Shown here one piece after another: positions 6,035 through 47,945 of a stretch of DNA of 64,000 nt. The first letter of the stretch is position 1. Every line of letters begins with the position of its first letter. Source of the stretch: Deferribacteres bacterium (GTDB taxonomy: Bacteria; Zhuqueibacterota; Zhuqueibacteria; Zhuqueibacterales; Geothermadaptataceae); assembly GCA_020633655.1 (NCBI GenBank), contig JACKDF010000005.1, positions 321,424 through 385,423 on the forward strand, read 5' to 3'. The notes under the pieces were generated by a model. It was not told the origin of the DNA, did no database searches, and was given only the letters and a program-made list of their open reading frames with translations. Both the position numbers and the translations under genes were made by a program.

Positions 6035-6452
6035 AATATAGGATAGAAATTGTAAAGATCAAGAGGGGAATATTTAAAAGTTTTTAATGTAAGTTGCGGG
6101 TTCTGTTGGTTTATGATAATTTTTAATGTTTTTTATTAGAAAGTGTTTTTATCTGAGCTTTTCTCTAATGAATATGTCGACGAAAACATTTCATGACTAT
6201 TTTTATTTGTTGACAATTAACAGTTTTTACAGTACGTTAAAGGTCGCGAATTTAAACGAATTTTTTTGCTGTTGCTGCGTGTTTCATGACAACAAAAAAT
6301 GTAGTTATTTTTATCTTTCCATTTCATTAAAAACAAAACCAAAATATTAAATAAAAATGTGAAATTGGTGGTTTGCACAATTTATGAATATGATCCCACC
6401 ATTGGCAAACTGCCCGTAGTTTATTCATCACTCACTAAAATCGGAGGGTTTT

Positions 6453-25028: not shown

Positions 25029-25209
25029 CTAGCCTGCTTTATTCGTAAATCCAAGATTGGGGGCTGTGTCAAAACATGAATTAACGGCCGTAACTCGACA
25101 TTTATGTCGTAAGTTTAAGCTTAAAAATGAGCGACATGAATGTCGAGTTACATGTTTTGACTCAGCCCCCATCGCTAACTTTGAGCATTGTATGAATAAA
25201 GCAGGCTAG
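25029..25209. repeat. MITE-like long imperfect hairpin element, full copy A
   Basis: The termini CTAGCCTGCTTTATTC (25029-) and GAATAAAGCAGGCTAG (-25209) are exact inverted repeats. The subterminal GGGGGCTGTGTCAAAACATG (25059-25078) pairs with CATGTTTTGACTCAGCCCCC (25151-25170). There is also an inner GTAACTCGACAT/ATGTCGAGTTAC stem. Confidence 0.75.
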
Positions 25210-32350: not shown

Positions 32351-33298
32351 ATGAAAATGTCGCAACGACAAGATTTCCTGTCTGAACTCATCGATGAGTT
32401 TTTAGCTTTCCTTGCTGCTGAAAAAAATCTGGCGCAAAATACAATTGAAGCCTACGGCCTCGATCTTGCCCACTACCACACCTGGCTCAGCGAAAAAAAA
32501 GTTCCTTCCCTCAACGCAATCGAAACGAAAGACATACGCGAATTTTTATCTGCCCTCGACGAATTAGAGCTTGCTGAAGCAACGGTTGCGCGCAAATGCG
32601 CAGCGATTCGCATGTTCCATCGCTACGTACACGCTGAAAACTATTGTGCCTCTGATCCCGCTCAATTAATTTCCTATAAACGCCGCAAAAGTTATTTGCC
32701 GGATGTACTGGAAATACACGAAATTGAAGCTGTTTTTGATTGTGTCGTCCCGGATACTGCTTTGGGATTACGCGACATGGCCCTTCTGGAATTTTTATAT
32801 GGAACCGGATGCAGAATATCCGAGGCACTGAATTTTGAACGCAGTGATTACTTTGCTGAAGAGAGTTTTGTGCAATTGACTGGCAAAGGCCGCAAAACAC
32901 GGCTTGTGCCGATAGGGGAGGTGGCTGTTCAGGCTATGCAGGATTATCTGCGCTACGGCCGTCCCGAATTGGCAAATCCTTTTATTTCACAGGATGTCGT
33001 TTTCCTCAATAATCGCGGACGAAAACTTTCCCGCATGGGGGCATGGAAAATTATACGAAAATATCTGGAAGCCGCCAAAATTGAAAAACATGCGTCCCCG
33101 CATACTTTCCGCCACAGCTTCGCAACCCATTTGCTCGAAGGAGGCGCTGATTTACGCGCTGTCCAGGAGATGCTTGGGCACGCCAGTATTTCCACGACTC
33201 AGATTTACACCCATATAGATCGCAGTTTTTTGCACACAGTCATACGTGATTTCCATCCGTTGGAGCAGCGCGGCAGGATGAAATCCAAATCGAAATAA
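32351..33298 (+). CDS. xerD: tyrosine site-specific recombinase XerD/XerC
   Basis: 315 aa. N-terminal SAM-like domain (FLAFLAAEKNLAQNTIEAYGLDL). Catalytic region ...GCRISEAL...HTFRHSFATHLLEGGADLRAVQEMLGHASISTTQIYTHI. Confidence 0.88.
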   Translation: MKMSQRQDFLSELIDEFLAFLAAEKNLAQNTIEAYGLDLAHYHTWLSEKKVPSLNAIETKDIREFLSALDELELAEATVARKCAAIRMFHRYVHAENYCASDPAQLISYKRRKSYLPDVLEIHEIEAVFDCVVPDTALGLRDMALLEFLYGTGCRISEALNFERSDYFAEESFVQLTGKGRKTRLVPIGEVAVQAMQDYLRYGRPELANPFISQDVVFLNNRGRKLSRMGAWKIIRKYLEAAKIEKHASPHTFRHSFATHLLEGGADLRAVQEMLGHASISTTQIYTHIDRSFLHTVIRDFHPLEQRGRMKSKSK

Positions 33299-34772: not shown

Positions 34773-34807
34773 ATTTTTATTGCCTGACGTATCCTTGACT
34801 GGCGCCT

Positions 34808-35050
34808 TTAAGCGTCCGGTACAAGAGGCTTTTTATGTTTGTTCTTTTCGATTATTGTGTCATATGCATTTTTCAGGTCTCGATAGTGCCACTGATCAAA
34901 AATATGGGCTCGCTGGAGTAAAATAGGTGCAAATAATATTGAAGTTAATCCAATAAAAAGCCAATTAAACTTGTGGTCATTTTTTATATACAGAGCATTT
35001 GTAATAAATGAAGTGCCGACTATTAGGCATGATAATGCAAGATTAGCCAC
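34808..35050 (-). CDS. hypothetical small membrane protein (80 aa, two predicted TM helices)
   Basis: GTG start; hydrophobic segments LALSCLIVGTSFI and WLFIGLTSILFAPILL. No family recognised. Confidence 0.4.
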   Translation of the reverse strand: MANLALSCLIVGTSFITNALYIKNDHKFNWLFIGLTSILFAPILLQRAHIFDQWHYRDLKNAYDTIIEKNKHKKPLVPDA

Positions 35051-35076
35051 TGCCTTTCCCTGATTTATTGCCTATT

Positions 35077-35137
35077 AACATTAATCTGCCCATAGTTTTT
35101 TCTTTCCGGTGATGTGTAATATGGGCCAATTAATGTT
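35077..35137 (-). repeat. attC-like imperfect palindrome S1
   Basis: AACATTAATCTGCCCATA (35077-35094) pairs with TATGGGCCAATTAATGTT (35120-35137), with a 25-nt loop. On the minus strand it ends GTTAATA. Confidence 0.45.
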
Positions 35138-35268
35138 TTATCATTTTCATTAAAAGTCAAACGTGTTGTACAGCGATGAATGGTTAAATTCGGGTCTGCT
35201 ACTTTCCGATGATCATTTATAAATTCTAAAATCAATAAAGGGCTATCTGGTTCATTTACAATTATTTT

Positions 35269-36288
35269 TTATTGTCCTTTGCCCTTGTCTTTCTTTTTTA
35301 ATTTCTTCACTTCTTTATCAAAATCAGAAATGAATTTTTCATCCTGAATAATGCGGAATTTTTCATATTCCTTTTCAGCGGTTTCTTTGGCAACGGCGGC
35401 AGAAACTTGGCCGGGGTTGTTCAACACATCGTATTGATTAAACTGCAGAAAGGCATCCAAACGTTCTGCCCATTCCTGCATTTTTATTGGGATTTGCCGT
35501 TCTGCCTGTAATTCTGCAAAATCCAAATACATGGTAACAATACGGTTAAGATTGCGGATTTCTTTTTCATTAAGATAATTCTTGGCAACGGTAACATCAG
35601 ATTTTAAGACTTTACCTTTAGGTGCGTTTTTCCAGGTTGTCAATCCCATGTGGTCCTTAGCGGAATCTGCTCGCTGGGCAATTATTTCAGCTGCTGTGTT
35701 TCCGGTGATGGCCCAGTGCAATTTATTCTGGACTGTTTTGTAGAAAAGTTCGGTTACTGTAGACTGCGGATCGTAATCAATGCTACATTGGGCATAAATA
35801 TCCGTAATCTTCTGGTAGAAGCGGCGTTCACTGGCACGAATTTCCCGGATGCGTTCCAGCAATTCATCAAAGTAATCTTTGCCAAACAATGTGCCGCCCT
35901 GTTTTAGGCGCTCATCATCCAAAGCAAAACCTTTGGTGATAAATTCCCGCAATACGCGGGTTGCCCAGATACGGAACTGCGTTGCCCGGGAAGTATTTAC
36001 CCGATAGCCGACTGAAATAATAGCGTCCAGATTATAATATTCGAGATTGCGGGAGACCTGGCGCTCACCTTCGGTTTGAACTGTCAAGATTTCTTTGACA
36101 GTTGCTTTTTTGCCTAACTCATTTTCTTTGAAGATATTTTGCAGGTGGTAACTGATATTTTGTTTGGTTGCCCCGAACAGTTCAGCCATTTTATTGATTG
36201 TTAACCAAACTGTCTCTTCCCGTACAAGGACTTCTACCTTAACATTACCCTGCGGTGTTGTATATAAAATGATCTCAGAATTTTTCAT
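35269..36288 (-). CDS. rhuM: RhuM family (virulence-associated, Fic/DOC-neighbourhood) protein
   Basis: 339 aa. Characteristic N-terminus ...VKVEVLVREETVWLTINKMAELFGATKQNISYHLQNIFKENEL...YNLDAIISVGYRVNTSRATQFRIWATRVLREF. Confidence 0.88.
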   Translation of the reverse strand: MKNSEIILYTTPQGNVKVEVLVREETVWLTINKMAELFGATKQNISYHLQNIFKENELGKKATVKEILTVQTEGERQVSRNLEYYNLDAIISVGYRVNTSRATQFRIWATRVLREFITKGFALDDERLKQGGTLFGKDYFDELLERIREIRASERRFYQKITDIYAQCSIDYDPQSTVTELFYKTVQNKLHWAITGNTAAEIIAQRADSAKDHMGLTTWKNAPKGKVLKSDVTVAKNYLNEKEIRNLNRIVTMYLDFAELQAERQIPIKMQEWAERLDAFLQFNQYDVLNNPGQVSAAVAKETAEKEYEKFRIIQDEKFISDFDKEVKKLKKKDKGKGQ

Positions 36289-36545
36289 GTTTCACTTTCA
36301 ATTTCATAATTCTCATACGCTTCTTTTGACAACGGAAAAGCCGGATCAATCACCAGAACTTCGTCGTAGTTGAGTTGGTAGAGTTTGTAAACCAGAAAAT
36401 CAATTTTAGATTTTAGTTTTTTAAATTCTTTCTCACTGATTTCTGGTTGAAGTAGTTGATTTACAATTTTAGTAAACACATTTTGTTTGTCACTGGATGC
36501 TGTTTTAATTGGGATTTTTTTCCAATCATCAGGATAAAAATCCAA
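36285..36545 (-). pseudogene. 3'-terminal fragment of a restriction-modification (type IIG/TaqI-like or BREX-type) methyltransferase gene
   Basis: The C-terminal ~85 aa of ORF 36285..36761 (DFYPDDWKKIPIKTASSDKQNVFTKIVNQLL...KSKIDFLVYKLYQLNYDEVLVID) match the conserved tail of such enzymes. The upstream half of that ORF is just the antisense of the intron 5' end. Its stop overlaps the rhuM start (ATGA). Confidence 0.5.
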
Positions 36546-36743
36546 GTGTGTGCCCGGCATGGCACGTGTGTATTTTGAATATCGAAATATACGCAGATTA
36601 TCCAGAGGGTGCAAGTCCCTTATGGGCAAGTTGGCGAAGCCCATTAGCAAGCCGCAAGGGTGTTCCGGGTGACCGGAAATCTGAAGGAAGCGATACTGCA
36701 AGAATCTGTGCGGAGGAATACAAACTGCATATGAGGCATAGCA

Positions 36744-38018
36744 TTGTGGGTAAGTAACCACTTCTTTACAAAGCCCGTAGCCAACAAACTTTGCTATGTA
36801 GATGCAGCAGGAGTCGACGGCAGATCAGTTAACAATCTGTCTTCCTATTTGAAAACGCACTGGAGTTCGATCAAAGAAAGGGTGGAGTCTGGCCGCTATG
36901 AACCTGATGCGATATTGGGTGTGGAAATTCCCAAGAGCAATGGGAAAACCCGGCTTTTGGGTGTTCCAACAGTTGTTGACCGCTTGCTGCAGCAGGCATT
37001 ACATCAACAACTGAGCCCGATATTCGAAAAGGATTTTCAGGAACATAGCTATGGTTTTCGTCCGAACCGCAATGCACATCAGGCGATTAAACAGGCGCAC
37101 AAGAACATCAATGACGGCTATCAGGATATCGTCGATATCGATTTGAAGAGCTTCTTTGATGAAGTGAGCCATGAATTGCTGATGACATTGATATACCGAA
37201 GAGTGAAGTGCCCACTGACCTTGAAACTGATTCGGAAATTTCTTCGAGCACCTATTCAAAAGAATGGGAAACTGGAGAAACGACGCAAAGGCGTGCCACA
37301 GGGTAGCCCACTGAGTCCTTTACTGTCCAATATCATTCTGAATGAATTGGATAAGGAATTGACGAAGCGTGGCCACCGGTATGTGAGATACGCCGACGAT
37401 TTCAGTGTGTACCTCAAGAGCAAGACGGCAGCGAGACGTGTTGGAAATAGTATTTACTTGTTCCTACGCGATGAACTCCGTTTGCCGATTAATCGCGAGA
37501 AAAGTGGAATCCGTCGTCCGAGTAAGTTTTACATGCTTGGTTATGGTTTTGTGCCGGTATTTTGCAAAGGCTCAAAGGGACAGTACCAACTGGTTGCGGA
37601 CATCTTTGCCTTGAAAAGGTTAAAAGAGAAGATCAAATGGATCACCCGCAAGACGACCCCGATGACCTTTGATGAACGGATAGCAAAACTGAACCAGGTA
37701 ATGAAAGGTTGGATGCACTATTTCAAGTACGCAAATATGCATGCAAAACTGCGAGTCATTGATGTCTGGATACGCCGTCGTTTGCGTGGTTGTATCTGGC
37801 ATGATTGGAAGAAACCGAACCGCAAGATGAAGAATCTGATGCGTTTGGGAATTCCGAAAGGGATGGCTTATGCATGGAGCAGAACGCGTATGGGAAGATG
37901 GGCTGTGGCTTGTAGTCCGATATTGAGTACAACGATCACGATTGGTCGTTTGGAAAGTCGTGGCTATGTGTCGCTGGAATCATACTATCTGAAAGTTCGG
38001 AAGACTGTAGGTTCGTGA
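36744..38018 (+). CDS. group II intron reverse transcriptase/maturase (no endonuclease domain)
   Basis: 424 aa. AAGVDG, RLLGVPTVVDRLLQQA, YGFRPNRNAHQA, the YADD box (VRYADDFSVY), and maturase domain X (MKGWMHYFKYANM...RRRLRGCIW). The N-terminal ~20 aa are atypical and the start is a TTG. Confidence 0.9.
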   Translation: MWVSNHFFTKPVANKLCYVDAAGVDGRSVNNLSSYLKTHWSSIKERVESGRYEPDAILGVEIPKSNGKTRLLGVPTVVDRLLQQALHQQLSPIFEKDFQEHSYGFRPNRNAHQAIKQAHKNINDGYQDIVDIDLKSFFDEVSHELLMTLIYRRVKCPLTLKLIRKFLRAPIQKNGKLEKRRKGVPQGSPLSPLLSNIILNELDKELTKRGHRYVRYADDFSVYLKSKTAARRVGNSIYLFLRDELRLPINREKSGIRRPSKFYMLGYGFVPVFCKGSKGQYQLVADIFALKRLKEKIKWITRKTTPMTFDERIAKLNQVMKGWMHYFKYANMHAKLRVIDVWIRRRLRGCIWHDWKKPNRKMKNLMRLGIPKGMAYAWSRTRMGRWAVACSPILSTTITIGRLESRGYVSLESYYLKVRKTVGS

Positions 38019-38051
38019 ACCGCCGTGTACGTGATCCGTACGCACGGTGGT
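38018..38051 (+). ncRNA. group II intron domain V
   Basis: AACCGCCGUGUACG-UGAUC-CGUAC-GC-ACGGUGGU: 34 nt, two helices with a 2-nt bulge on the 3' strand. It starts at the RT stop codon. Confidence 0.75.
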
Positions 38052-38238
38052 GTGAGAGGCGCACTCCGGTCTAACGGGGCCGGAGCCGCCTACTCGATTA
38101 GCATGTATTTCGTTTCTTTTTATTTATTCTTTAAAAATATTTATAAATCTCCAATTTGCTTCCGCATGAATGCGTAACAAGTCTATTACCTTGAAATACA
38201 GCGATTTTTCTCGTTTTTGATGCCGCTGTTTACCAAAC

Positions 38239-40845
38239 TTAACTTTTGTAAACCATTGCATGTTCATCGGGATTGAACCCTTTTGGGAATTTGGTATCAC
38301 CATCAAAATAAGCACCCTTAAGCTTAGTTCTGTTTAAATTCGTTCTACTGAGGTTTGTTGCTCTGAGATCAGCTCCGCTGAGGTTTGCGTTTTTAAGCCT
38401 GACCCTATCAAGTTTTGCATTTCGAAGATTTGTGTTAGTAAGAAAGGCTCCACTGAGATTAGCTTCACTTAAGTTTATTCCACTGAGGTCCATCCCGCTG
38501 AGATTCACTCCGTTGAGTTTACTTTTGCTAAGATTTACTCTATTAAGGTTTGCTCCCCTAAACTTGGCCATATAAAAATCACTACCGCTGAGATTTGCTC
38601 CACTAAAGTCAATCTCACTCAAATCAGCTCCTTTAAGGATAACTCCACTCAGATTGGCTCCTTGATAATCAACTCCACTGAGATTAATTTTCATTAAGTC
38701 AGTTCGCTTTAGATTTGATTTTTTATTATTTATTCCATTAAATTTCATTCCCTTGAGATTAGCTTGCTTTAGATTTGATGCTTTATTATTTATTCCATCA
38801 GGTATAATTTTTCTTATATCAGTTTGTTTTTTTTTATCTTTTATTATACTATTATCGGTAAAAATAATTTCATTTAAATTGACTCCATTATGATCGATCT
38901 CTTTAATGTCTATTCCGTGAAAATTAGTTTGAAAAAGAATGCTGCCTTTCAGGTTGATTCCTTGGATATTAGCATCCTGTAAATCAGCATTACTGAGATT
39001 AGCCATACTGAAATTTGCTCCATTGAGGATAGCTTTACAAAGTTTAGCTCCTTTGAGATTTGAATAACTGAGTTCAGCATTTGTTAAAATAGAACTAGTA
39101 AGATTTGCCCCAGCAAGACTGGTATTATTGAGATTAGCACTTTTGAGATCAGCATTGCTAAGATTAGTTCCTTCCAGATTTGCTCCTTTAAGATCAGCAT
39201 TACTTAAGCAGATACCTTCAAGATCAGCACCACTGAGATAAGCTTCATTAAGTATACTATCGCTTAGGTTGGCATTACAAAGAATTACTTCACTAAGAGT
39301 TGCATTATTTAATTTGGCTCTACGAAGATCTGCTTTTCCTAGGTTAGCTTCACTGATGACAGCACCTTTTAGATCTGCATCCCTAAGATTTGCTTCAGTG
39401 AGTACAGCTTCCATGAGATTAACATTATTTAAATTAGCACCCATCAGGTTTGCTCTAACTAGTTTAAGTCCACTTAGATTGCAATCACTGAAATTCAATC
39501 CAGTAAGGTCTGCTTCGCTGAGATCTATTTCTTGACTATAATGTAACTTAACTAATTCAGCGACAAATTTTTTTATTTGATCTGTCCAATCAAGAAAAAC
39601 GCGATCTTTTACTGGTAATTTAACAAAGTAATTTATGAAAAGGAATTCAAGGATTGATCTATGGGAAAACTTGTAATTCCCATAACCATCTCTATTTAAG
39701 AGGGATCGAGAACTGAGTTCAAGTTCATTTAGATCAATTTTATGAGTTAAAGCGAAAGGTACTAGCTCATGTCGTGGAATTTGACCATTATTTTCCTTTT
39801 GATAGCGATATAGGTGATTTGCAAGTGCTTCAGAAAATCGTCGGAGTGCGACTTTATCACTTATGCGTTCACGGTTGATCCAATGTATAATAATTTCTTC
39901 ATAGATATCATAACTATTTTTATATTCTTTATTAGGATCCATAAAACTCGACATATATTTTAACAACATTGGACGCAAAGCAAGGCTTGGTGCAGCTGAA
40001 ATGATTTGCCAAGCTTTTCTTCGCAGTTTATAATTTAAAATAGAGTATTTTTTCTTGATAAATTTTTGTACCTGCTCATCATTAAATGGAAGCAAGTATT
40101 GAATTGTAAACATTCTGTATCCATCACTTTGATCGGCATTGATGTTTGGTATTGAAGTTTTTCGTTTTATTGCTGCTGAATTAGGAAAAAATTGTGTACG
40201 GCTACTGATTAAAACTCTATTGAAACCTTCTGTTATATCTACCAACTGATTATAACGTGTATTAATACTCTCTATTGCAAATGGGTCTTCATCAAAAGCA
40301 TCGAGAAAAAGAATTGTATTTTTTTTATTCTCTATGTTTTTGATACATTGATCTACATTTTTTGCGTTAAGTCTGAGTACAATAATTTGTTTTTTGCTAA
40401 ATTTCTTATGTCGATAATTACGCATAAGTATATTAATCAAGGCAGCCGTTTTCCCGGTACCAGAATCTCCTAGTAAATACATATGTCGATTCTTTGCCCC
40501 TTCAGACAGAAATTCATCTATTTTTGTAAATAGTTTTTCATGTTTTTTCTCTCCATAGATTTTCTTAAGGTCCTCAGTATAAGATGGGTCACTCGGTGAA
40601 CAATACGGTTCAATATAAATATCAGTATAGCTTTTAATAGTTTCTTCATCAAAAAACTCAAACGTTATTTCATTGTTAATAATTTTTAACGCTTTATTGT
40701 CTTTCCATTTAGTTTTTAACTCTAAAATAGTTTTTATAATTATCAGTATAGTACTGATTCCCCCTATTATTTTTAAAATGGTAAATTGTTTTATATCGAA
40801 TATGTTTGTTAGAAGACTAATTATATCCTGGTTGTGAAAAAACAT
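38239..40845 (-). CDS. STAND NTPase: N-terminal TM helix, NACHT-type P-loop module, long C-terminal pentapeptide-repeat array
   Basis: 868 aa. TM helix at ~aa 22-42. Walker A LLGDSGTGKTAAL, Walker B ILFLDAFDE, then VLISSRTQFF and LLPFNDEQVQKFI (NACHT order). From ~aa 445 there are about 80 A(D/N)LxG-type pentapeptide units, interrupted once by a Lys-rich linker. Confidence 0.85.
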   Translation of the reverse strand: MFFHNQDIISLLTNIFDIKQFTILKIIGGISTILIIIKTILELKTKWKDNKALKIINNEITFEFFDEETIKSYTDIYIEPYCSPSDPSYTEDLKKIYGEKKHEKLFTKIDEFLSEGAKNRHMYLLGDSGTGKTAALINILMRNYRHKKFSKKQIIVLRLNAKNVDQCIKNIENKKNTILFLDAFDEDPFAIESINTRYNQLVDITEGFNRVLISSRTQFFPNSAAIKRKTSIPNINADQSDGYRMFTIQYLLPFNDEQVQKFIKKKYSILNYKLRRKAWQIISAAPSLALRPMLLKYMSSFMDPNKEYKNSYDIYEEIIIHWINRERISDKVALRRFSEALANHLYRYQKENNGQIPRHELVPFALTHKIDLNELELSSRSLLNRDGYGNYKFSHRSILEFLFINYFVKLPVKDRVFLDWTDQIKKFVAELVKLHYSQEIDLSEADLTGLNFSDCNLSGLKLVRANLMGANLNNVNLMEAVLTEANLRDADLKGAVISEANLGKADLRRAKLNNATLSEVILCNANLSDSILNEAYLSGADLEGICLSNADLKGANLEGTNLSNADLKSANLNNTSLAGANLTSSILTNAELSYSNLKGAKLCKAILNGANFSMANLSNADLQDANIQGINLKGSILFQTNFHGIDIKEIDHNGVNLNEIIFTDNSIIKDKKKQTDIRKIIPDGINNKASNLKQANLKGMKFNGINNKKSNLKRTDLMKINLSGVDYQGANLSGVILKGADLSEIDFSGANLSGSDFYMAKFRGANLNRVNLSKSKLNGVNLSGMDLSGINLSEANLSGAFLTNTNLRNAKLDRVRLKNANLSGADLRATNLSRTNLNRTKLKGAYFDGDTKFPKGFNPDEHAMVYKS

Positions 40846-40920
40846 TTTACTATTTTGATCCTATTTTTAGTAATTCTCATTTTGATCAAATTACCTACCA
40901 CCCCACCTGAGACTGATGCT

Positions 40921-40983
40921 AACGTTGAAGTCAGCGGCATGTGGAGCTTGCGGAAGCCCCACATGCCTCTGGACTGACAGGTT
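40921..40983 (-). repeat. attC-like imperfect palindrome S2
   Basis: AAC-GTTGAAGTCAGCGGCATGTGG (40921-40944) pairs with CCACATGCCTCTGGACTGACAG-GTT (40959-40983), with an inner GCTT-gcgg-AAGC hairpin. It starts 5 nt after the stop of the 93-aa ORF. On the minus strand it opens ATATAAC and closes GTTAGCA. Confidence 0.5.
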
Positions 40984-40987
40984 ATAT

Positions 40988-41269
40988 TTATTGCCATTCG
41001 GTGAAATTCAAATAACCTAGATACATAAAAAATAATGTACAAGCAGGGTATGCCAACATTTTTATCTTGTTATTTATCTTACCTAATTCAGGATGAGGTC
41101 TCATACCCAGCCAACATGATACAAAACACAGCACTAAGCCAAACAACAAACAGACACTATCAATGACCATGTTGCTTGAGTAGTAAACTGGAACTAGCAG
41201 CAAGAATCCTGCGTAAATAACAAAATCCGCTGGCTTTATACCCAACCATTCTTTAGTCGATTCTTTCAT
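40988..41269 (-). CDS. hypothetical small membrane protein (~93 aa, three hydrophobic segments)
   Basis: The ORF track gives 40988..41308 from a GTG. The ATG at 41269 (MKESTKEWLGIKPADFVIYAGFLLLVPV...) is more plausible. No family recognised. Confidence 0.45.
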   Translation of the reverse strand: MKESTKEWLGIKPADFVIYAGFLLLVPVYYSSNMVIDSVCLLFGLVLCFVSCWLGMRPHPELGKINNKIKMLAYPACTLFFMYLGYLNFTEWQ

Positions 41270-41284
41270 GTTATTCCCATAAAA

Positions 41285-41423
41285 ATATAACGTTAACGTG
41301 ATGCTCACCTGCTGGCGGGCTTAACAGCACAAAACATAAATAAATTATCAAAACTTCAAATACTGCACTGATCGTGCTGAAATTGCCGCCCTGCCCGCCA
41401 GTCAGGTGCAGCAATAGTTAGGT
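41285..41423 (-). repeat. attC-like imperfect palindrome S3
   Basis: CTCACCTGCTGGCGGGC (41304-41320) pairs with GCCCGCCAGTCAGGTG (41393-41408), with a 72-nt AT-rich loop. On the minus strand it opens ACCTAAC (41423-41417) and closes GTTAACGTTATAT (41297-41285). Confidence 0.5.
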
Positions 41424-41450
41424 GAAGTCAGTAGTACTTTTTAAAAAAAT

Positions 41451-44024
41451 TTAAAGAAATATAATTTCCTTGGGTACCCCATTTTCAAATTCTATCATCA
41501 ACCTCTTATCAAAATGATTATTAGTAAAAGTTACATGAAAATCTATATACTTTTTCAGTCCATCGCCAAATGCAACATTTCCAGTTTGTTGAAAGATATG
41601 ATCCATTTTAGAACTAATGTCCTGTATACTATCTAACTTTGCTTGCGTTTTATTTTGCTCAGCAATCATAATTGACTGAACTGATATTTCACATATTTTA
41701 CAAACTTGATCAGGTTGAATATCTGTATTCTCAATAGAAGTGAATCCCAGCATTTCATTTTTATTTAATAATTTCAAATTAGTTAAGACTGAGCCTGATG
41801 TATTCTTAATACTAATTATAAATTTTCCTGCTAAAACATCAAAATTTCCAATTTTTTCGATAACACATTTTAATTGATTAACTTTATTAATTTCAGGAAT
41901 ACTCTTAGTTTTAATAAAATTATTTTTTATTTCGTAACTATTGGTATTGAGCGACAATACCAAATCGTCATATTTTGAATAAAATTCATTTACTATTTCT
42001 TGTTTTGAGAGTTTGTTTTTACGTTCTTTTACAAAGCTCGATAACAAGCTTTCTTCTTTAGTAAATGTTGAATCAGATAACTTCTCAAATGAATCTAGAA
42101 TTTCAGGTGCTAATTTTTCTACAAGGATAATAGTTTCAGTCGTATCTTGTAGATAATCTGGCATATTCGCAGTAAGACAAAATAGTAAAATATTTGTCCA
42201 TGCCAATTCGGTGTCATTAGTCATTAAGTAGTTAAGACATAGTGTCCTATAGACTGATGCGAAAAGAGGTTTAAGACCAATAGCCTTTTTAGCAAATTCT
42301 ATAGATTTGTTATGTATTGATTTAATATAATAAAGCTGTGAGAGTTTAATATAGGGATACGGATTATTTGGAGCAAGTTCTAATGCCGCATTATAATAAT
42401 TAAGAGCCTGTTCGATATTATCTTTACGTTCATAAACTCTCCCAAGTTGAAAAAAAATCACAGGATCTGAAGGAGCTATTTCTTTCGCTTCCATAAGGAT
42501 TTCTATACAATTATCAAAATTTGCACTAAAAAGATATGCATCTGATAATCGATAGTAACCTAACATTTCTTCAGGTTCTTTTCGTATATACTGACGAAAA
42601 TAGTGTATTGCTCCCTCATAGTCACCTTCTTTCATATAACTTGTACCTAAAAACAAAGATACTCCAGCATTTGTAGATTTTATTATATCTTCATTTTTTT
42701 TTATTATTTGCAGAATTTCATCTGGTGTAATATTTTTATTTTCAAGGAATTGATCCCATGCGCTTGAAGGAGCTCTTAATATTTGTTCAGCCAGACTATC
42801 ATTAAAAGAGTTTATATAAACAACATTATCTCTATGATCTTGAGATATATAAAAAAGCTCAAAATTATTTGTTTCGCTGATTCTCTCAACTTCATCTTCA
42901 AAAAATCCTATTGTAAATTTAAAATTGAAGTATCCAGAATATTTTGAGTTGAAATCAACTAGTATATTTTGACCATCTTTAGATTCTATTACTATATATT
43001 TATTTCCTAAAACAGAACTTATTTTCTTTTTTGGATCAAGATTAACATGAAAAATTTCCCTATCAAACACACCTTTGGCTAATGATCCTACTACAATTCT
43101 TCTTGGAAGCTTTTCATAATTATTTAAAATTAACTCAATTTTGTCAATAGAAATCTGTTTTTCACTTTTATTAAAGAAAAAGAATTTTATTGGATCTCTG
43201 AATCTATCCTCTGAATAACCTTCTAAAGGAAGTAACCGAACTTTCTTTAATATTCCTTTTTCGATACAGTATGCATATTTATATGGGGGAGTAAAATGAT
43301 AAGCCGTTTTAATTGAAAGAGATTTGGATATAAGGGGTTGTTCAAAGACATTTATTATAATATCTTTACTTGAAAATATTTTTGATGATTTGTCAGTGAA
43401 ATGAAGAGAAATATTGCTAGCTCCAACATTTTTCCCCTTAATAATCATACTAATTTTATGCGTGCTATTTTTGTTTAGTTTTACTAGCTGTTCTAAATTT
43501 AATAATTCTATTGATACTATTTGATGATTCATTGTTATAGAATGTAGTTTTATATTTTCAATATCGCGCGTTCCTGTATTTCTCAACATTATATCCAAAT
43601 TTAATTCTTCATGAACTTGAATCTTATATTGGGATTTGTTTTCAATATGAAAAACATCTAATTTTGAATCACTACTAGTAGTGCTGTTGTTTGTCATTCT
43701 ATCAATATTTAAACTATCTAATTGAATTTCGTCTCTATCCTGAATTTTGCTCTCAGAGTTACTATTTACATTGACTATCTCCAGTTCTTTTTCTCCAAAA
43801 TATTGATAGTATATTTCTGTTGCCTTATCAATATTTGTAAGAAGTCCTATTATAGTGGTAAAAAAAGCAATGATCACACTTAATTTTGCTATTAACCATT
43901 TTCTTGGATTTCTGTGTTGCCAACATTTTGAATATGAACTAGTTGATTTAAGTTTTCTATTACATTTCTTTCCTGATTTAAGTATATGTTCACATTGCTT
44001 GTAAGATAATATAGTTTTTTCCAT
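41451..44024 (-). CDS. hypothetical 857-aa protein: Cys/His-rich N-terminus, one TM helix, beta-rich region, TPR repeats, unknown C-terminal domain
   Basis: The N-terminus reads CEHILKSGKKCNRKLKSTSSYSKCWQH, and the TM helix is WLIAKLSVIIAFFTTIIGLL. TPR-like repeats span ~aa 465-610 (GDYEGAIHYFRQYI..., ALNYYNAALELAPNNPYPY...). The gene is very AT-rich. Confidence 0.7.
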   Translation of the reverse strand: MEKTILSYKQCEHILKSGKKCNRKLKSTSSYSKCWQHRNPRKWLIAKLSVIIAFFTTIIGLLTNIDKATEIYYQYFGEKELEIVNVNSNSESKIQDRDEIQLDSLNIDRMTNNSTTSSDSKLDVFHIENKSQYKIQVHEELNLDIMLRNTGTRDIENIKLHSITMNHQIVSIELLNLEQLVKLNKNSTHKISMIIKGKNVGASNISLHFTDKSSKIFSSKDIIINVFEQPLISKSLSIKTAYHFTPPYKYAYCIEKGILKKVRLLPLEGYSEDRFRDPIKFFFFNKSEKQISIDKIELILNNYEKLPRRIVVGSLAKGVFDREIFHVNLDPKKKISSVLGNKYIVIESKDGQNILVDFNSKYSGYFNFKFTIGFFEDEVERISETNNFELFYISQDHRDNVVYINSFNDSLAEQILRAPSSAWDQFLENKNITPDEILQIIKKNEDIIKSTNAGVSLFLGTSYMKEGDYEGAIHYFRQYIRKEPEEMLGYYRLSDAYLFSANFDNCIEILMEAKEIAPSDPVIFFQLGRVYERKDNIEQALNYYNAALELAPNNPYPYIKLSQLYYIKSIHNKSIEFAKKAIGLKPLFASVYRTLCLNYLMTNDTELAWTNILLFCLTANMPDYLQDTTETIILVEKLAPEILDSFEKLSDSTFTKEESLLSSFVKERKNKLSKQEIVNEFYSKYDDLVLSLNTNSYEIKNNFIKTKSIPEINKVNQLKCVIEKIGNFDVLAGKFIISIKNTSGSVLTNLKLLNKNEMLGFTSIENTDIQPDQVCKICEISVQSIMIAEQNKTQAKLDSIQDISSKMDHIFQQTGNVAFGDGLKKYIDFHVTFTNNHFDKRLMIEFENGVPKEIIFL

Positions 44025-44086
44025 TTTTATCCTCTTATGATATTGTTAATTCATAAAATCTAAAAATGTAATATTCATAATCAAAC

Positions 44087-44167
44087 ACCTAACTTGTTTC
44101 TCACCGACTGGGAGAGGAAAGTTATAGCTTGTAAAAACTTGTCGGTGAGGAAAATGACTTGTTTTTT
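44087..44167 (-). repeat. attC-like imperfect palindrome S4
   Basis: TTTCTCACCGAC (44097-44108) pairs with GTCGGTGAGGAA (44141-44152), with a 32-nt loop. On the minus strand it opens AAAAAAC (44167-44161) and closes GTTAGGT (44093-44087). Confidence 0.5.
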
Positions 44168-44264
44168 AGATTATTACCATAAAAATAGAAATTTACATCC
44201 AATTGTTCAACAAAATATATGTTCATCTCCATGCAGGATATCAAAGGCAAAATTTCCATACTTT

Positions 44265-46052
44265 TTATTTTCCCCGCCGGAACGCTAACCATGCCAGGAC
44301 CAGAAAACCACTGGTTGACAAACCGATGGCAAGGATTGTAAGGAAACTGATTTCCCGGGAAATTATGAGCTTGTAGGGATCATCCCGGTCATACCAACAC
44401 GGTACAATAGCTCCCAGTTTGTTTTCTCTAAAGAATTGAAAGGATGCTGCTGCACTCGATATAACGTCGCCCTCTGGTGTTGCGTACCGTGCGGCTATTA
44501 TCGGCATTTGGTGGATCGTGGTTGTGGAACGACTTGTACGGCTTCCGCTCGTCGTTACGGATTTTAAGTAAAAACGACGGTCGAGAATCACTGCTTCCGA
44601 CTTGTCATAATTGGTATAAAGATGCACAGTTTCCATTATCAGTGTGTATGTTATAAGGGCGAAAAGCAACGAGAAAATACCCGCATTCAATCGACCGGCA
44701 ACCCTGGTGAAAGGATGTTTTCTACCCAGAAAATGCCAGGAACCGGCCCAAATCATAATTAGTAAGGGGAAGCTGAAAATCAAAAACAAACTAGCGACGG
44801 TTCCATCGACATATTCTGATTCCGATAATGGCTGACTCAGGTTTAAAAACAGGTCTTCTTCCTCGGAATAGGTTAACACGTTCCGAGCCCGCACATCAAC
44901 AGATAAATCGCCGGTGTCCCAGGCATCCCGAACAAAGATTCGCATGGTGAGAAAACCACTACTGCGTGCAGGCAGTGCTAACAACGGCCAATCAATTTTT
45001 TGGTCCAGTTGTGCCTGATAGGGATTAATAATTTTGCCATTATGCGATGTGCCAACAAACAAAGCTTCCGAATTCAAGGTGGCTTCAACTCTTACAACCC
45101 GTTTTGTGTCTGTATCGTTGGTTAAGCGGATTTTAAGTTCAGCCAGGTCACCGTGCTTCAACGGATCCGGATTTACACTAATTTTTGCAGGCGTTAATGA
45201 ACTTGTACTGTCCAGCTCTATCTGGTCTAACCAGTCCTGTCGCGCATGGCTCAGAAAATTCAGATTCTCGTTGCGATGAATGCTGCCATGGGCATAGTTA
45301 ACAAGCAGCTTGTCGACTTCCGAACTGTTACCCAGCCAATCCGCGACCGTTCGGCCGAAATCATCGACCGCGTTCACCTCGGCGCCATTTTCTGCTAATA
45401 TTTTTACCAGCTTTGGATTTGCTTCATAAACGTACATAAGCGGCGTTCTGCCGTTGTCATCCCGGGCATTTGGATCAGCACCATTGGAGAGCAGGACACT
45501 GGCTATCTCCTCGTTGTGCGTTCGCATCAATAATGTGGTTCCACCTTCCCCACGGGTATCCGGATTCAGCCCCGATTCAAGCAAAGGCTGCAGCATTTCC
45601 GGGGTTTTGGCATCATCAATTAGAGGGCGTCCAAAAGAATCCCGCGGTTCCGGATCACCTAAACCGACCCAGGCCAATTTGCGCACCAATGGCAGGTTGT
45701 CATTGTACATGGCCCGGTCAAGAAGCCGGGCCCGTTCTTCAAGAATTGGCCAGCCAAGGGGTGTTTTTAAAAGCAGGCTATCCGGCCATGCGGGAACGAG
45801 AGTTAATGCGCCTAAAATCAGGAGAGCTAAACTTCCAAGAATTGATACCGCATTTATTGGATGCGTCAGAAATGATTTTAATAACTTTTTCAGACCGAAA
45901 TAAATCAGGATTCCACCTATAAAACTCAGGAAAATAACACCCGCCAGGGGGACCAATCCGTAGAGAAGCCAGACATGCCCTACGGTTATTATCAGATAGA
46001 AAACCGTACCTGTCCAGCCTGGTTTGTCACGTTGCGCCTTGTTCTTTTTCAT
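44265..46052 (-). CDS. polytopic membrane protein with ankyrin repeats and a C-terminal DUF3592-like module
   Basis: The ORF track starts at a TTG at 46121. The ATG at 46052, preceded by AAAGGAGA, gives MKKNKAQRDKPGW... There are N-terminal TM helices and ANK repeats (GGTTLLMRTHNEEIASVLLSNGADPNARDDNGRTPLMY...LAENGAEVNAVDDFGRT). The C-terminal region is a beta-rich segment bracketed by TM helices. The DUF3592 assignment is tentative. Confidence 0.75.
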   Translation of the reverse strand: MKKNKAQRDKPGWTGTVFYLIITVGHVWLLYGLVPLAGVIFLSFIGGILIYFGLKKLLKSFLTHPINAVSILGSLALLILGALTLVPAWPDSLLLKTPLGWPILEERARLLDRAMYNDNLPLVRKLAWVGLGDPEPRDSFGRPLIDDAKTPEMLQPLLESGLNPDTRGEGGTTLLMRTHNEEIASVLLSNGADPNARDDNGRTPLMYVYEANPKLVKILAENGAEVNAVDDFGRTVADWLGNSSEVDKLLVNYAHGSIHRNENLNFLSHARQDWLDQIELDSTSSLTPAKISVNPDPLKHGDLAELKIRLTNDTDTKRVVRVEATLNSEALFVGTSHNGKIINPYQAQLDQKIDWPLLALPARSSGFLTMRIFVRDAWDTGDLSVDVRARNVLTYSEEEDLFLNLSQPLSESEYVDGTVASLFLIFSFPLLIMIWAGSWHFLGRKHPFTRVAGRLNAGIFSLLFALITYTLIMETVHLYTNYDKSEAVILDRRFYLKSVTTSGSRTSRSTTTIHQMPIIAARYATPEGDVISSAAASFQFFRENKLGAIVPCWYDRDDPYKLIISREISFLTILAIGLSTSGFLVLAWLAFRRGK

Positions 46053-46418
46053 TTTAATTATTTCGTCTCCTTTTAAGTGCTCTAAAAATCTGATATGCGG
46101 ACATACGGAAGTAACAGCCAATAGAAGTCATCCCATGATTCGATAAAAACCATCACACCGAGTTGAATGCGGTCAAAACAAAATGACTACAGGCTAGTAA
46201 TCACAGGACAAAACATTGCTATATGACCTTCTTTACCAGGTTCACTTCAGGACTGTGTACTTAATAAACCGGTTGTAGAAGTTATCTCATCCTGTCTAGG
46301 AATGCAAGGATCATTTGGGGCTTTGCCGGAAATAAGACAATATGAATACGCAAGTTACTACTACTTCTTTGGCAAATTCGAGTTTTGCCTAAAAAATAGG
46401 TAAGAGGAAAACAACCCT

Positions 46419-46660
46419 TGACGAGGCCGTCGAAAAACATGCAAATTCGGACCCTGAGCTTGTCGAAGGGCCCGAATTCGAGCGTGGAACCGGGTATTTT
46501 GACACGTCGACTTTACTCAGTGCAGGCAGGCTCAATGTCCGGTTTGTCCCTTTTTCAACAGTTTCGAAAGGATTGCGATTTTACAGAAACTCTTTTACTC
46601 TGGACTCACCAAACCTGAATTATTCTCACGCGCAGAGTCGCGGAGCCCGCTGAGAAAAGC
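46419..46660. repeat. cluster of GC-rich hairpin repeat sequences inside a 0.8-kb noncoding spacer
   Basis: Hairpin AATTCGGACCC...GGGCCCGAATT (46444-46478) containing CCCTGAGCTTGTCGAAGGG; then CTCAGTGCAGGCAGGCTC (46517-46534); then TCTCACGCGCAGAGTCGCGGAGCCCGCTGAGA (46624-46655). Confidence 0.5.
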
Positions 46661-46893
46661 TTTGATGAATTACAAAATATGGCTCTGTATCCTTTTCGAT
46701 TCGACGTTTATCTTTTCGAACTTATTCTTATTCTTGCATGAATAACAGCGGAAAAATCAGTGGTCAGTTTGTGGAAGATGGCAGACAATCTTGAAGGATT
46801 TATCCGTTGAATTAATCGAGAGAATATCCTATCATAAGCAGTCTTTTTCACAGTTCTACAATAAAAAATTTTCCTTCGGCTGGGAGAGTCTGA

Positions 46894-47829
46894 ATGGCGG
46901 TTTCAAAACAACGGCGACTTTTTACGATTTATGCACAAGGTGATCTGGCAGCAGCACAGAAATTGAAACAGCAATTCGCCGAAGTGCAGATCAAGTTGGG
47001 AATCGATCTCGACCGGCGGGTGGACAGCCACGCGTTTTCAGCAGACAAATGTACGGCCTTGCGAAACAGCGATGCGGCCCTTGTTCTCTGGTCGCAATAT
47101 GCAGCCGAGTCGCTTTGGGTGGAAGTTGAAATCCGTGGTGCAGAGGATTTGCACAAACCAGTGATATTGCTGCACCTCGAAGATTTTCCCCTGAATGTGA
47201 ATATGCATCCTGATCTCATCGTAAGTCCTGAGCCTGTTGAAAAGGTGCGAAAACGCATCGTTCACTTTTTAAACCGGCAAAAGGCACGACATCAAACACA
47301 TTCGTTAACACATGACCAATCGAATAATCCTTTCGCCTTGCGGAGTTCCGCTGTAAAACGGTTTAATCCGCTTTCTTTGGAGCATATGGCCCAGAAGCTT
47401 GGTTTCTTTGAAAAAACATTGAATCCCGATGGTTACGGAGTGCGGCATCAGTACGAAAGCGTGGAAGACGGGCGTCTTCTACACGACTATGCAACCGGAT
47501 TGATGTGGCAGGTTGCGGGCTCCGCCCATGAGATAAATTACGAAGTGGCCGCGGGCTATGTGGACGATTTGAACCGCGAGCGCTACAGTGGCTTTCGCGA
47601 GTGGCGCCTGCCTACGGTGGAGGAAGCCCTGTCTTTGCTCGAACCAACGCACTATGAACATGGTCTCTACCTCGATCCACTTTTTGGTGCGTTGCAAAAA
47701 TCCATCTGGACATGCGATGCATTCTCCGGGGAACATTGGACATTGAATTTCAGTGTCGCGCAATGCTTTTTACAGGGCTCTGGCACTGAGCACTTTGTAC
47801 GCGCGGTGCGAACACTCGAAACGCTTTAG
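46894..47829 (+). CDS. TIR-like domain fused to an Lcl_C/DUF1566 (lectin-like) domain
   Basis: 311 aa. The N-terminal ~105 aa fit the TIR_2 pattern (LFTIYAQGD...AAQKLKQQF...SDAALVLWSQYAAESLWVEVEI...KPVILLHLE). The C-terminal part has the DUF1566 hallmarks TGLMWQ ... FREWRLPTVEEALSLL. Confidence 0.65.
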   Translation: MAVSKQRRLFTIYAQGDLAAAQKLKQQFAEVQIKLGIDLDRRVDSHAFSADKCTALRNSDAALVLWSQYAAESLWVEVEIRGAEDLHKPVILLHLEDFPLNVNMHPDLIVSPEPVEKVRKRIVHFLNRQKARHQTHSLTHDQSNNPFALRSSAVKRFNPLSLEHMAQKLGFFEKTLNPDGYGVRHQYESVEDGRLLHDYATGLMWQVAGSAHEINYEVAAGYVDDLNRERYSGFREWRLPTVEEALSLLEPTHYEHGLYLDPLFGALQKSIWTCDAFSGEHWTLNFSVAQCFLQGSGTEHFVRAVRTLETL

Positions 47830-47945
47830 TTGCAAAACAAAACTCCTTGTTTAATCCATGAAATACACGCTCAATGCGATAAAATCAAAGCGCATTGAAC
47901 GTATTTCATTGTTCGAAAAAATAATAACCTGGCAAAATAATTTCT

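Follow-up and report, generated by a model that had tools for sequence, protein, structure and literature searches.

We find that the region from 38.1 to 44.1 kb of the window, the 64-kb stretch of DNA analysed here, is very probably (about 0.85) a short array of integron cassettes that lies on the minus strand and lacks an integrase of its own (CALIN). CALINs are defined as groups of two or more same-strand attC within 4 kb that have no intI nearby (PMC4889954), and because the sites S2 and S3 lie on one strand with no intI nearby, we assign the region to this class. The kind of element is thus already known; here its cassettes are unusually large and its last site contains a group II intron. 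The array belongs to an uncultured bacterium, KSB1/Calditrichota-like (FCB group).

A preliminary description of this DNA had proposed such an array on the basis of four palindromes, and the array itself is borne out by two attC, co-oriented cassettes and no IntI in the window. The coordinates of all four palindromes and every box quoted for them are correct in the sequence. As attC, two of the four stand, S2 and S3, which are supported by structure and covariance model and delimit three gene cassettes; S1, which is coding and unscored, and S4, at 5.6 bits or less, do not. Likewise, the described location in intergenic DNA, just 3' of minus-strand ORFs, is correct for S2, S3 and S4, and S1 falls inside a gene remnant.

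35077-35137, no strand assigned: S1, near-perfect palindrome outside the element, in a CBASS 2TM/Cap15 effector remnant
40917-40987, minus: S2, attC of the 93-aa cassette (models R1 and R2, homology)
41285-41423, minus: S3, attC of the 857-aa cassette (R2 24.7 bits, E 5e-4, over 41291-41423)
44087-44167, minus: S4, attC-like hairpin (R2 at most 5.6 bits; fails the attC models)

Two attC sites identified by structure and covariance models

Real class 1 attC from plasmids follow, in 16 of 16 cases, the parse 7-5-3-1-6-(1)-stem...stem-6-3-5/6-7. When the whole window was scanned on both strands for 15 Watson-Crick pairs at canonical attC spacing, 13 or more pairs were found only at S2 (14/15), S3 (15/15) and, on the plus strand, S4 (13/15); random Markov windows are expected to yield 0.067 matches at 13, 0.017 at 14 and about 0 at 15. 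In the rule-based parse S2 reaches 12/13 pairs and S3 13/13 with both extrahelical bases; a looser form of this parse (12/13 pairs, G-U allowed) gives about 5 chance matches per window. The covariance-model check advised in the preliminary description was run with home-made, briefly calibrated models, so that the E-values are rough, and it matched S2 and S3. Model R1, built from class 1 attC only and searched against 128 kb, returns S2 (25.5 bits, E 1.8e-4) as its sole match below E=1 and misses S3. Model R2, built from 132 real sites, none of them taken from this window, gives S2 47.0 bits (E 7e-10), followed by S3, with the next best match in the window at E 4.9. S2 and S3 are the only significant matches in the 64 kb to covariance models built from real attC.

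Both sites have the canonical layout of R'' box, unpaired spacer of 4-5 nt, 3-bp L box, extrahelical base and 6-bp stem. S2 reads ATATAAC CTGTC AGT C CAGAGGCATGTGG (14-nt loop) CCACATGCCGCTG ACT TCAAC GTTAGCA, with its crossover position at 40923|40922; its extrahelical C gives the canonical G on the bottom strand, and in place of a second extrahelical base there is one A.G mismatch. In the 5' half of S3, the R'' box ACCTAAC (41423-41417) is followed by the UCS TATT, the L box GCT, an extrahelical G (C on the bottom strand, where G is usual) and the stem CACCTG, beyond which lie an extrahelical A (T on the bottom strand), a 9-bp stem and a variable region of about 72-82 nt; the 3' half is CAGGTG AGC ATCAC. 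The two candidate GTT boxes noticed earlier in S3, GTTAACG (41297-41291) and GTTATAT (41291-41285), are both present, and are explained by a perfect tandem duplication; without it, the sequence would be ...AGC ATCAC G|TTATAT, in which the spacer has the canonical 5 nt. In folding of both strands, also advised, the top strand is slightly more stable than the bottom strand in S2 (-19.3 vs -16.6 kcal/mol) and S3 (-26.5 vs -24.3 kcal/mol), a bias opposite to that of mobile-integron attC on average (PMC5027507).

S2 belongs to a family of attC found at 54 metagenome loci, in same-strand arrays of up to 10 sites. Within this family 16 of 20 pairs show compensatory changes, and 89.9% of cells are paired, compared with 25-41% when the pairing is slid. 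S2 is 77% identical to the canonical attC of one locus (L103), and other loci of the family encode a divergent integrase (L125; TIGR02249, 361.5 bits, cut-off 265) or a partial integron integrase (L150). Structure, covariance model and homology to attC beside integron integrases together support S2 as an attC.

Complementary boxes define three cassettes

The rule that the box opening a site complements the box closing its upstream neighbour, on which the preliminary description was built, holds at 3 of 3 successive junctions. The S4 box GTTAGGT pairs with ACCTAAC of S3, and the extended 9-nt pair AGTTAGGTG/CACCTAACT was confirmed; GTTATAT of S3 pairs with ATATAAC of S2. For GTTAGCA, which closes S2, the counterpart had been described as ATTAGCA (38097-38103), one mismatch from the prediction; once the intron is removed the box is an exact GTTAGCA. 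Of random pairs in this window, 0.5-0.7% show exact complementarity of GTTNNNN and NNNNAAC, and in genuine arrays the rule holds at 4/4 positions in 42 of 55 consecutive site pairs (76%).

41291-44092, minus: cassette A, 2802 bp (2796 bp if the duplication is discounted), TTAGGTG... to S3, boundaries from boxes
41288-41299, minus: perfect 6-bp tandem duplication ACGTTA x2 at the junction of S3 and the next cassette (direct sequence check)
40923-41290, minus: cassette B, 368 bp, TTATATTTTTATGG... to S2
38099-40922, minus: cassette C, at least 2824 bp, TTAGCA... to TGCTA, box restored on intron removal

The GC content of the cassettes is 0.28-0.39, compared with 0.43 for the whole window, and two are of about 2.8 kb, as large as had been remarked. 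The closest homologues of all three genes lie in cassette contexts. Cassette A (GC 0.284) encodes an 857-aa TM/TPR protein (41451-44024, minus) with a single homologue among 5.8e9 proteins (P0001, 39% identity), whose gene is followed by an S2-type attC (78 bits). The 93-aa putative membrane protein of cassette B (40988-41269, minus) has 36 homologues, one of which (P0005) occupies the first cassette next to a confirmed IntI (L159, 339 bits) and another of which (P0004) lies in an attC array (L158); both of these cassettes start G|TTATATTT and agree exactly with cassette B in 5' boundary and R'' box. The gene of cassette C (38239-40845, minus) encodes an 868-aa P-loop NTPase, STAND-like and with pentapeptide repeats (Pfam, NCBIfam); it is followed by a 135-nt spacer and TGCTA, the first 5 nt of the cassette's own R'' box (38103-38099). 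An attC-like site (L164, 2595-2642, 24.5 bits) comes after the gene for P0040, a homologue of this NTPase with 63% identity.

The cargo had been called defence-like. Neither the 868-aa nor the 857-aa protein matched a known defence system in PADLOC, and the clear defence-related genes, namely RhuM, a type IIG restriction-modification remnant and the Cap15 remnant, lie outside the cassettes; any defence role of the cargo is hypothetical. Of the presence/absence polymorphisms that a comparison had been suggested to reveal, none was seen in the three other assemblies of the locus, which are 100% identical (two) or 99.98% identical with a single 1-bp gap (one).

The upstream end of the array

Because S4 fails the models, the upstream end is undefined, and S4 is either a decayed attC or a secondary site. 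Its box G|TTAGGT (44093|44092) opens cassette A. A possible but rather unlikely account is that S4 is a chromosomal secondary site, or a chance hairpin, at which a foreign integrase inserted cassettes, so that the array starts at G|TTAGGT and never had attI or intI here. Secondary-site insertion is one published route to CALINs (PMC4889954), the low-GC block begins at S4, the upstream ankyrin gene has a host-like GC (0.46 over 44168-47900), and no attC or complementary GTTTTTT box was detected upstream of that gene. The 5' half of S4 has an 11-nt spacer, lacks the canonical extrahelical base and can be parsed only with spacers of 7 and 3 nt. Its 3' half, however, has exactly the canonical L'/spacer/R' spacing (GTCGGT GAG AAACAA GTTAGGT), which, together with a G bulged out of the 3' arm on the bottom strand, fits a decayed attC better than a random hairpin, and the complete attC that insertion at a secondary site would leave at the far end is absent.

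S1 was rejected as an intergenic attC. It forms residues 33-53 of the translated stretch that aligns, over residues 4-55, with a CBASS 2TM/Cap15-type effector (56-aa remnant, 35065-35235, minus; PADLOC PDLC00703, E 4e-12; Pfam PF18153 on the called 56-aa gene), and no attC model scores there.

A group IIC intron in the last site

36548-38098, plus: group IIC intron, GTGTGCCCGG... to ...CTACTCGAT (Rfam RF02001, 94.5 bits)
36546-36547, minus: last two R'' bases, AC (GT on the plus strand), completing R'' TGCTAAC after intron removal

The intron, whose start we correct from 36546 to 36548, encodes an RT/maturase (36744-38018; Pfam RVT_1, GIIM) and lies inside the R'' box of cassette C, opposite to the cassettes. 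Read on the plus (bottom) strand, the junction is AAGT|intron|TAGCA, and joining the exons to ...CCAAGT|TAGCATG yields the predicted box. Introns of group IIC that target attC have the published target TTGT/T in R'' (PMC7923331). The expectation that this one targets an attC is upheld by its orientation and its position at GT/T of R'', and not by its 5' flank, which is not an attC hairpin: beyond 36546 on the cassette strand there is no attC body, and the sequence is a C-terminal type IIG restriction-modification remnant (36285-36545) with its own hairpin (GGATTTTT...AAAAATCC). It is possible, if rather unlikely, that the intron homed to this hairpin, which is followed by CAAGT|, a generic IIC target (PMC7923331), and that cassette C never had an attC there. 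The restored box would then be a coincidence; because intron preference fixes GT/T, only the four bases AGCA are free, with a chance of about 0.4%, and the RT is 40% identical to that of one attC-lineage intron. Against coincidence, the box is exactly that predicted by the R' of S2, it lies at the first hairpin past the NTPase gene, exactly at the border of the low-GC block, and the 7-mer occurs just 5 times in 128 kb. Moreover, the junction mirrors that of a class 1 integron with the same intron layout (...CGAT|TAGGC in L095, ...CGAT|TAGCA here).

A reading of the four palindromes as common intergenic hairpins, whether REP-like elements, terminators or regulatory stems, with boxes complementary by chance, is highly improbable and for S2 and S3 already contradicted: S1 and S4 do lack model support, the looser parse does match by chance and there is no integrase in the window, yet with two independent attC models only S2 and S3 fall below E=1, S2 is homologous to array sites beside IntI, the cargo homologues are cassettes, three consecutive junctions are complementary and, as the preliminary description held, none of the four sites fits a terminator-like pattern.

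Proposed mechanism and relation to known systems

The CALIN consists of three promoterless cassettes in succession, the 857-aa TPR protein gene with S3, the 93-aa membrane protein gene with S2, and the 868-aa NTPase gene, with an attC reduced to R''. The plus strand of the window is the recombinogenic bottom strand, on which each single-stranded attC would fold into an imperfect hairpin of R box, unpaired spacer, L box with extrahelical base, and stem. An integron integrase supplied from elsewhere would bind this hairpin and cleave the AAC of the bottom strand between A and C, that is, at G|TT on the gene strand, so that each cassette could be freed or inserted as a circle; because of this cut, cassettes start with TTNNNN that pairs with their own R''. 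Later, at GT|T and in the orientation opposite to that of the cassettes, the group IIC intron would have entered the last attC within its R'' box. This attC no longer has a body, most likely because of recombination between intron copies. Whether or not the cassettes still move, neither IntI nor an IntI pseudogene is found in the 64-kb window, in agreement with the preliminary description, and the sole tyrosine recombinase there is XerD.

Like the CALINs reported in 2016 with IntegronFinder (PMC4889954), the array has two model-supported attC, 304 nt apart on one strand, just after co-oriented ORFs and with no intI nearby; it is small (most CALINs have <6 sites), and its cassettes are unrelated to resistance genes. 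It differs from them in its uncultured host, in two cassettes of about 2.8 kb where about 2 kb is the usual maximum, in attC that are mutually unrelated and in ends formed by a degenerate site and an intron-cut site.

The intron resembles group IIC-attC introns (S.ma.I2 and relatives; PMC3001079, PMC7923331) in being a IIC intron with RT/maturase that occupies an array's last cassette on the bottom strand, opposite to the cassettes; its insertion at GT/T of R'' parts the gene from its attC, and its junction matches that of the intron in the pWLK-NDM class 1 integron (L095). Unlike in these introns, the 5' exon is an unrelated gene remnant hairpin and IBS1 is AAGT instead of TTGT; its relation to the monophyletic attC intron lineage is gauged here by RT identity to one member.

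In its large single-gene cassettes for a TM/TPR protein and for a STAND-like NTPase whose C-terminal domains are swappable, the array recalls integron-borne anti-phage defence (bioRxiv 10.1101/2024.07.02.601686, 10.1101/2024.07.02.601719), and the locus also contains RhuM, restriction-modification, CBASS-effector and TIR genes. Unlike the published systems, which are described as streamlined and small, the cassettes here are large, and their proteins match no known defence model.

S2 is reminiscent of sedentary chromosomal integrons, such as the Vibrio cholerae repeats of the superintegron, as a member of a conserved attC family with variable outer R-box positions and compensatory stem changes, whose sites form long arrays on one strand next to a divergent IntI (L117, L150, L125). 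In contrast to such integrons, the window has only one site of this family. As no sequence relative of S3 occurs among the loci retrieved, the array looks to be of mixed origin, as in mobile integrons.

A cassette array without an integrase

We find that the 38-44 kb block is a genuine array of integron cassettes that lacks an integrase, in other words a CALIN, a cluster of attC sites with no integron integrase. It holds two intact attC sites (S2 and S3) and a third that a group IIC intron has probably cut down to its R'' box, and its upstream boundary, S4, is either a degenerate attC or not an attC. Its genes lie on the minus strand, with the plus strand as bottom strand, and its GC content is 0.27-0.36 against about 0.43-0.44 for the window.

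Features of the array
41451-44024, minus: TM/TPR protein, 857 aa (cassette A, with S3)
40988-41269, minus: 93-aa protein (cassette B, with S2)
38239-40845, minus: P-loop STAND-like NTPase with pentapeptide repeats, 868 aa (cassette C)
36548 (GTGTGCCCGG...) to 38098 (...CGAT), plus: group IIC intron (Rfam RF02001, 94.5 bits; Pfam RVT_1 and GIIM)

Two attC sites on one strand with no integrase nearby define a CALIN (PMC4889954). S2 and S3 share the minus strand and are separated by 304 nt, each at the 3' end of a co-oriented ORF. As the preliminary description had it, intI is missing: it is absent from the 20 kb upstream of S4 and from the whole window by TIGR02225 and TIGR02249 scores and by tblastn, so the element is not a complete integron, and no attI is recognisable in the window. 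The tblastn searches, with IntI1 and with the environmental IntI of metagenome locus L125, matched only a tyrosine recombinase of 315 aa (32351-33298), which is XerD (336 bits on TIGR02225, cut-off 329.6). Lying 2 kb from S1, this recombinase was considered as an IntI and rejected, having scored 130 bits on the NCBIfam integron-integrase model against a cut-off of 265.

The array adds a CALIN from an uncultured, little-sampled lineage to a kind of element that is already known. MAGs carrying the window proteins are labelled candidate division KSB1 or Deferribacteres by NCBI, and within the species set a Calditrichaeota MAG comes closest. The array is unusual in the size of its cassettes, in its intron-split terminal site and in the apparent exchange of attC bodies between homologous cassettes.

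Structure of the palindromes

All four palindromes and boundary boxes of the preliminary description are present, and none of the four looks like an intrinsic terminator, as it had held. Its view that they are attC-like stands for S2 and S3, on layout and covariance models, and is not supported for S1 and S4, on models and spacing. AAC and GTT triplets bracket S2, S3 and S4, and the outer box positions of S2 and S4 deviate from the R/Y consensus.

Palindromes and boxes
44087-44167: S4, R'' AAAAAAC, R' GTTAGGT
41285-41423: S3, R'' ACCTAAC, R' GTTATAT or GTTAACG
40917-40987: S2, R'' ATATAAC, R' GTTAGCA
35077-35137: S1, within a gene remnant

In the published definition of an attC site (PMC5027507), the boxes are R'' RYYYAAC and R' GTTRRRY; each arm has 5-6 unpaired nt as a spacer, the L box carries its extrahelical base at position 16, another extrahelical T comes 6 bp later, and the terminal structure is variable. 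Our reference set, taken from plasmid-borne class 1 integrons, comprises 16 different attC sites, which parse without exception (16/16) as 7-5-3-1-6-(1)-stem...stem-6-3-5/6-7. S3 reads ACCTAAC TATT GCT G CACCTG A CTGG...CCAG CAGGTG AGC ATCAC GTT...; its spacers measure 4 and 5 nt, its L box 3 bp and the stem between its two extrahelical bases 6 bp. The second of these bases is an A (T on the bottom strand), and 13/13 pairs form. Likewise, S2 reads ATATAAC CTGTC AGT C CAGAGG...CCGCTG ACT TCAAC GTTAGCA (12/13 pairs), with two 5-nt spacers and an extrahelical C whose bottom-strand counterpart is the canonical G; the second extrahelical base is missing. S4 departs from the canonical layout, its spacers being 7 and 3 nt or 11 and 6 nt, and in S1 the region that should be spacer is entirely paired.

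A loose rule-based detector (G-U pairs allowed, threshold 12/13) gave about 5 chance matches per window and was dropped in favour of a score of 15 Watson-Crick pairs at canonical spacing, applied to the whole window on both strands. At least 13 pairs are reached only by S3 (15), S2 (14) and S4 read on the opposite strand (13), where 0.067 matches at 13, 0.017 at 14 and about none at 15 are expected by chance in a random window. On folding, the top strands of S2 and S3 are slightly more stable than the bottom strands; this runs against the average of mobile-integron sites, and we count it as a misfit to the attC reading. Another intergenic palindrome, at 25079-25160, pairs at 12/15 on either strand, no more than chance would give (about 1.2 such cases per window), and goes unreported by both covariance models.

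The attC covariance models were built for this analysis and are not the attC_4 model of IntegronFinder. R1, trained on the 16 class 1 sites alone and run on the window with filters off, returns S2 as its single match below E=1 (25.5 bits, E 1.8e-4). It also recovered 132 sites in plasmid and metagenome loci, from which, with none from the window, R2 was built. R2 detects S2 at 47.0 bits (E 7e-10) and S3 at 24.7 bits (E 5e-4, 41291-41423), its next match having an E of 4.9. An attC covariance-model search, the kind of check proposed in the preliminary description, yields S2 and S3, with no other match below E=1; in these models S4 reaches at most 5.6 bits and S1 has no score.

In S4 the 3' half is canonical and a G bulges from the correct arm, but the 5' spacer runs to 11 nt; the palindrome may represent a decayed attC or else a site of secondary insertion. 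The ankyrin gene upstream of S4 was rejected as a further cassette, as upstream of it there is neither an attC nor a GTTTTTT box. Its protein (44265-46052, minus) has a DUF3592 membrane domain at its end, and in an unrelated genome a DUF3592 gene likewise borders a cassette array (L158, 9065-9763).

Complementary boxes at the cassette junctions

A box rule between neighbouring sites flagged the element from raw sequence and then held quantitatively. Integron cassettes usually lack a promoter, and the TTNNNN with which a cassette starts is complementary to its own R'' box. When the four outer R-box positions of each site are set against those of the preceding site in 55 consecutive pairs from real arrays, 42 pairs are complementary at 4/4 and 10 at 3/4. 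Random GTTNNNN/NNNNAAC pairs of the window are exact complements in 0.5-0.7% of cases. All three window junctions are complementary at 4/4, which bears out the proposal that complementary neighbours are an integron signature.

Between S4 and S3, GTTAGGT complements ACCTAAC, in a match reaching 9 nt. At the S3-S2 junction, two candidate GTT boxes had been reported in S3. They are the product of a perfect 6-bp tandem duplication (ACGTTA x2, 41288-41299) exactly at the attC crossover point, which is present in each of the four assemblies of the locus. If it is taken away, the end of S3 becomes ...AGC ATCAC GTTATAT, with the canonical 5-nt spacer. Homologous 93-aa cassettes in L159 and L158 open G|TTATATTT with R'' ATATAAC, identical to the window, and since they share this cassette start and R'', the second GTT (41291|41290) is the true junction. 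At the third junction, removal of the intron restores R'' TGCTAAC (GTTAGCA on the bottom strand), the exact box predicted by the R' of S2. The preliminary description had predicted this box for a missing site; the single mismatch that it saw, ATTAGCA, disappears once the intron is taken out.

Relatives of the cassettes and sites

The 857-aa protein has one homologue among 5.8 billion proteins (39% identity), and just after that gene comes an attC of fully canonical form, GGCTAAC CCGGC AGT C CAGCGG A ... CCGCTG ACT TTAGC GTTATTC, 77% identical to S2. The pattern common to the two sites occurs in 54 metagenome loci, with many matches at contig ends, and forms arrays on one strand of up to 10 sites (for example L117 and L150). 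Compensatory changes are found in 16/20 pairs of this family, and 89.9% of cells are paired; sliding the pairing lowers this to 25-41%. The family adjoins confirmed IntI genes, which indirectly favours the view that an integron integrase may recombine S2 as a folded bottom strand. In two of its loci an integron integrase gene lies in divergent orientation. That of L125 scores 361.5 bits on TIGR02249 (cut-off 265), and the first cassette there opens G|TTATGCCC and has an attC that opens GGGCATAAC; that of L150 is partial. S2 is in this way tied to a widespread environmental attC family with integrases of its own. For S3 and S4, only chance 13-14-mers were found among 55 metagenome loci.

Among 36 homologues of the 93-aa protein, the one in L159 is the first cassette next to a confirmed IntI (339 bits) and the one in L158 sits in an array with attC sites. 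These two cassettes and that of the window have in common the gene, the 5' boundary and an R'' that overlaps the stop codon, and carry three unrelated attC bodies (window 40917-40987, L159 6283-6352, L158 about 6283-6380). By sequence comparison, it is as if the bodies downstream of R'' had been exchanged among homologous cassettes. The NTPase module is that of a family of over 1600 proteins, whose C-terminal domains (Lcl_C, FGE-sulfatase, pentapeptide repeats) are interchangeable, and a homologue with 63% identity is followed by an attC-like site at 24.5 bits.

Single-gene cassettes of about 2.8 kb, with a STAND-type NTPase or a TM/TPR protein, can carry canonical attC sites. This is relevant to the size limit assumed for cassettes and to the role of integrons in storing conflict or defence genes.

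The group IIC intron and the distal end

Group IIC-attC introns insert at TTGT/T in R'', on the bottom strand and opposite to the cassettes, and often hit the last cassette (PMC3001079, PMC7923331). The window intron lies opposite to the cassettes, at GT/T, with joined exons CCAAGT|TAGCATG, but its IBS1 is AAGT and its 5' exon is not an attC hairpin. Its junction pattern recurs in the intron of the class 1 integron L095, and the two intron proteins are 40% identical in a single pairwise comparison. Past the intron there is no attC body: a reconstituted sequence beginning TGCTAAC parses at only 7-8/15 pairs, and the far side is a remnant of a restriction-modification gene with its own hairpin.

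What explains the missing attC body? Two intron copies may have recombined, which would have parted the NTPase gene from its attC. Alternatively, a generic hairpin may have been the homing target of the intron, the box then being a chance match; on that reading only AGCA, four bases, was free, with odds of a match of about 0.4%. Recombination would involve more than one copy. MAG contigs break at the intron, which suggests that it is multi-copy, and there are probably several copies in this genome; a metagenome scan with the intron 5' end found no further ones.

We regard as rather improbable a wider proposal, that the distal end is a caught intermediate of intron-mediated cassette remodelling and that R''-anchored exchange of attC bodies generally re-pairs genes with sites. 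One intron copy would lie in the R'' of the NTPase cassette attC and the other behind the hairpin of an unrelated gene; recombination between them would uncouple gene from attC, the reverse of the cassette-genesis model of Leon and Roy. The 93-aa cassettes with three unrelated bodies, together with the intron split, would point to such exchange. The split terminal site, and one cassette gene found with different attC bodies, offer concrete material for studying how cassettes arise and how genes come to be paired with attC sites.

The intron RT (36744-38018, plus) is some 25-30 N-terminal residues shorter than the L095 intron protein, and its RT0 region may be truncated. L095 itself is a class 1 integron on plasmid pWLK-NDM (NZ_CP038280.1, 2525-5800); it carries NUDIX and yjjG cassettes, the latter with a group IIC intron in its attC. 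That attC is restored (GAATTGT|TAGGC) only if the intron begins GTACG, not the annotated-looking GTGTA. The model detected no attC for the NUDIX cassette.

The preliminary description had also proposed a comparison of related genomes. Other assemblies are essentially identical at the locus and show no presence/absence difference, and exact look-ups of the window proteins returned only essentially identical copies, with no polymorphism. An empty site was sought in one genome per species carrying the flanking FAD oxidase; the sole close match (88%) is a 3.4-kb contig in which synteny is unreadable.

Cargo and neighbouring genes

No PADLOC model matches the cassette proteins, and the recognisable defence-related genes (RhuM/PDC-S05, a type IIG remnant, a Cap15 remnant and a TIR-Lcl_C protein) lie outside the cassettes. 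The defence-like cargo proposed earlier is for these reasons not a finding; it is a reasonable guess from context and domain architecture. A decayed defence patch adjoins the array at 34800-36547:

35065-35235, minus: C-terminal remnant (56 aa) of a Cap15/2TM CBASS effector
35269-36288, minus: RhuM/PDC-S05 gene, intact
36285-36545, minus: C-terminal remnant of a type IIG restriction-modification enzyme

S1, described as intergenic, is inside the first of these. On the other side of the array, a protein at 46894-47829 (plus) has a TIR_2 domain fused to Lcl_C, which is also the commonest C-terminal domain in the family of the 868-aa NTPase; this suggests domain shuffling between these conflict-type genes. 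Elsewhere in the window, two adjacent ORFs of 823 aa (14471-16942 and 17110-19581, plus) are probably tandem paralogues.
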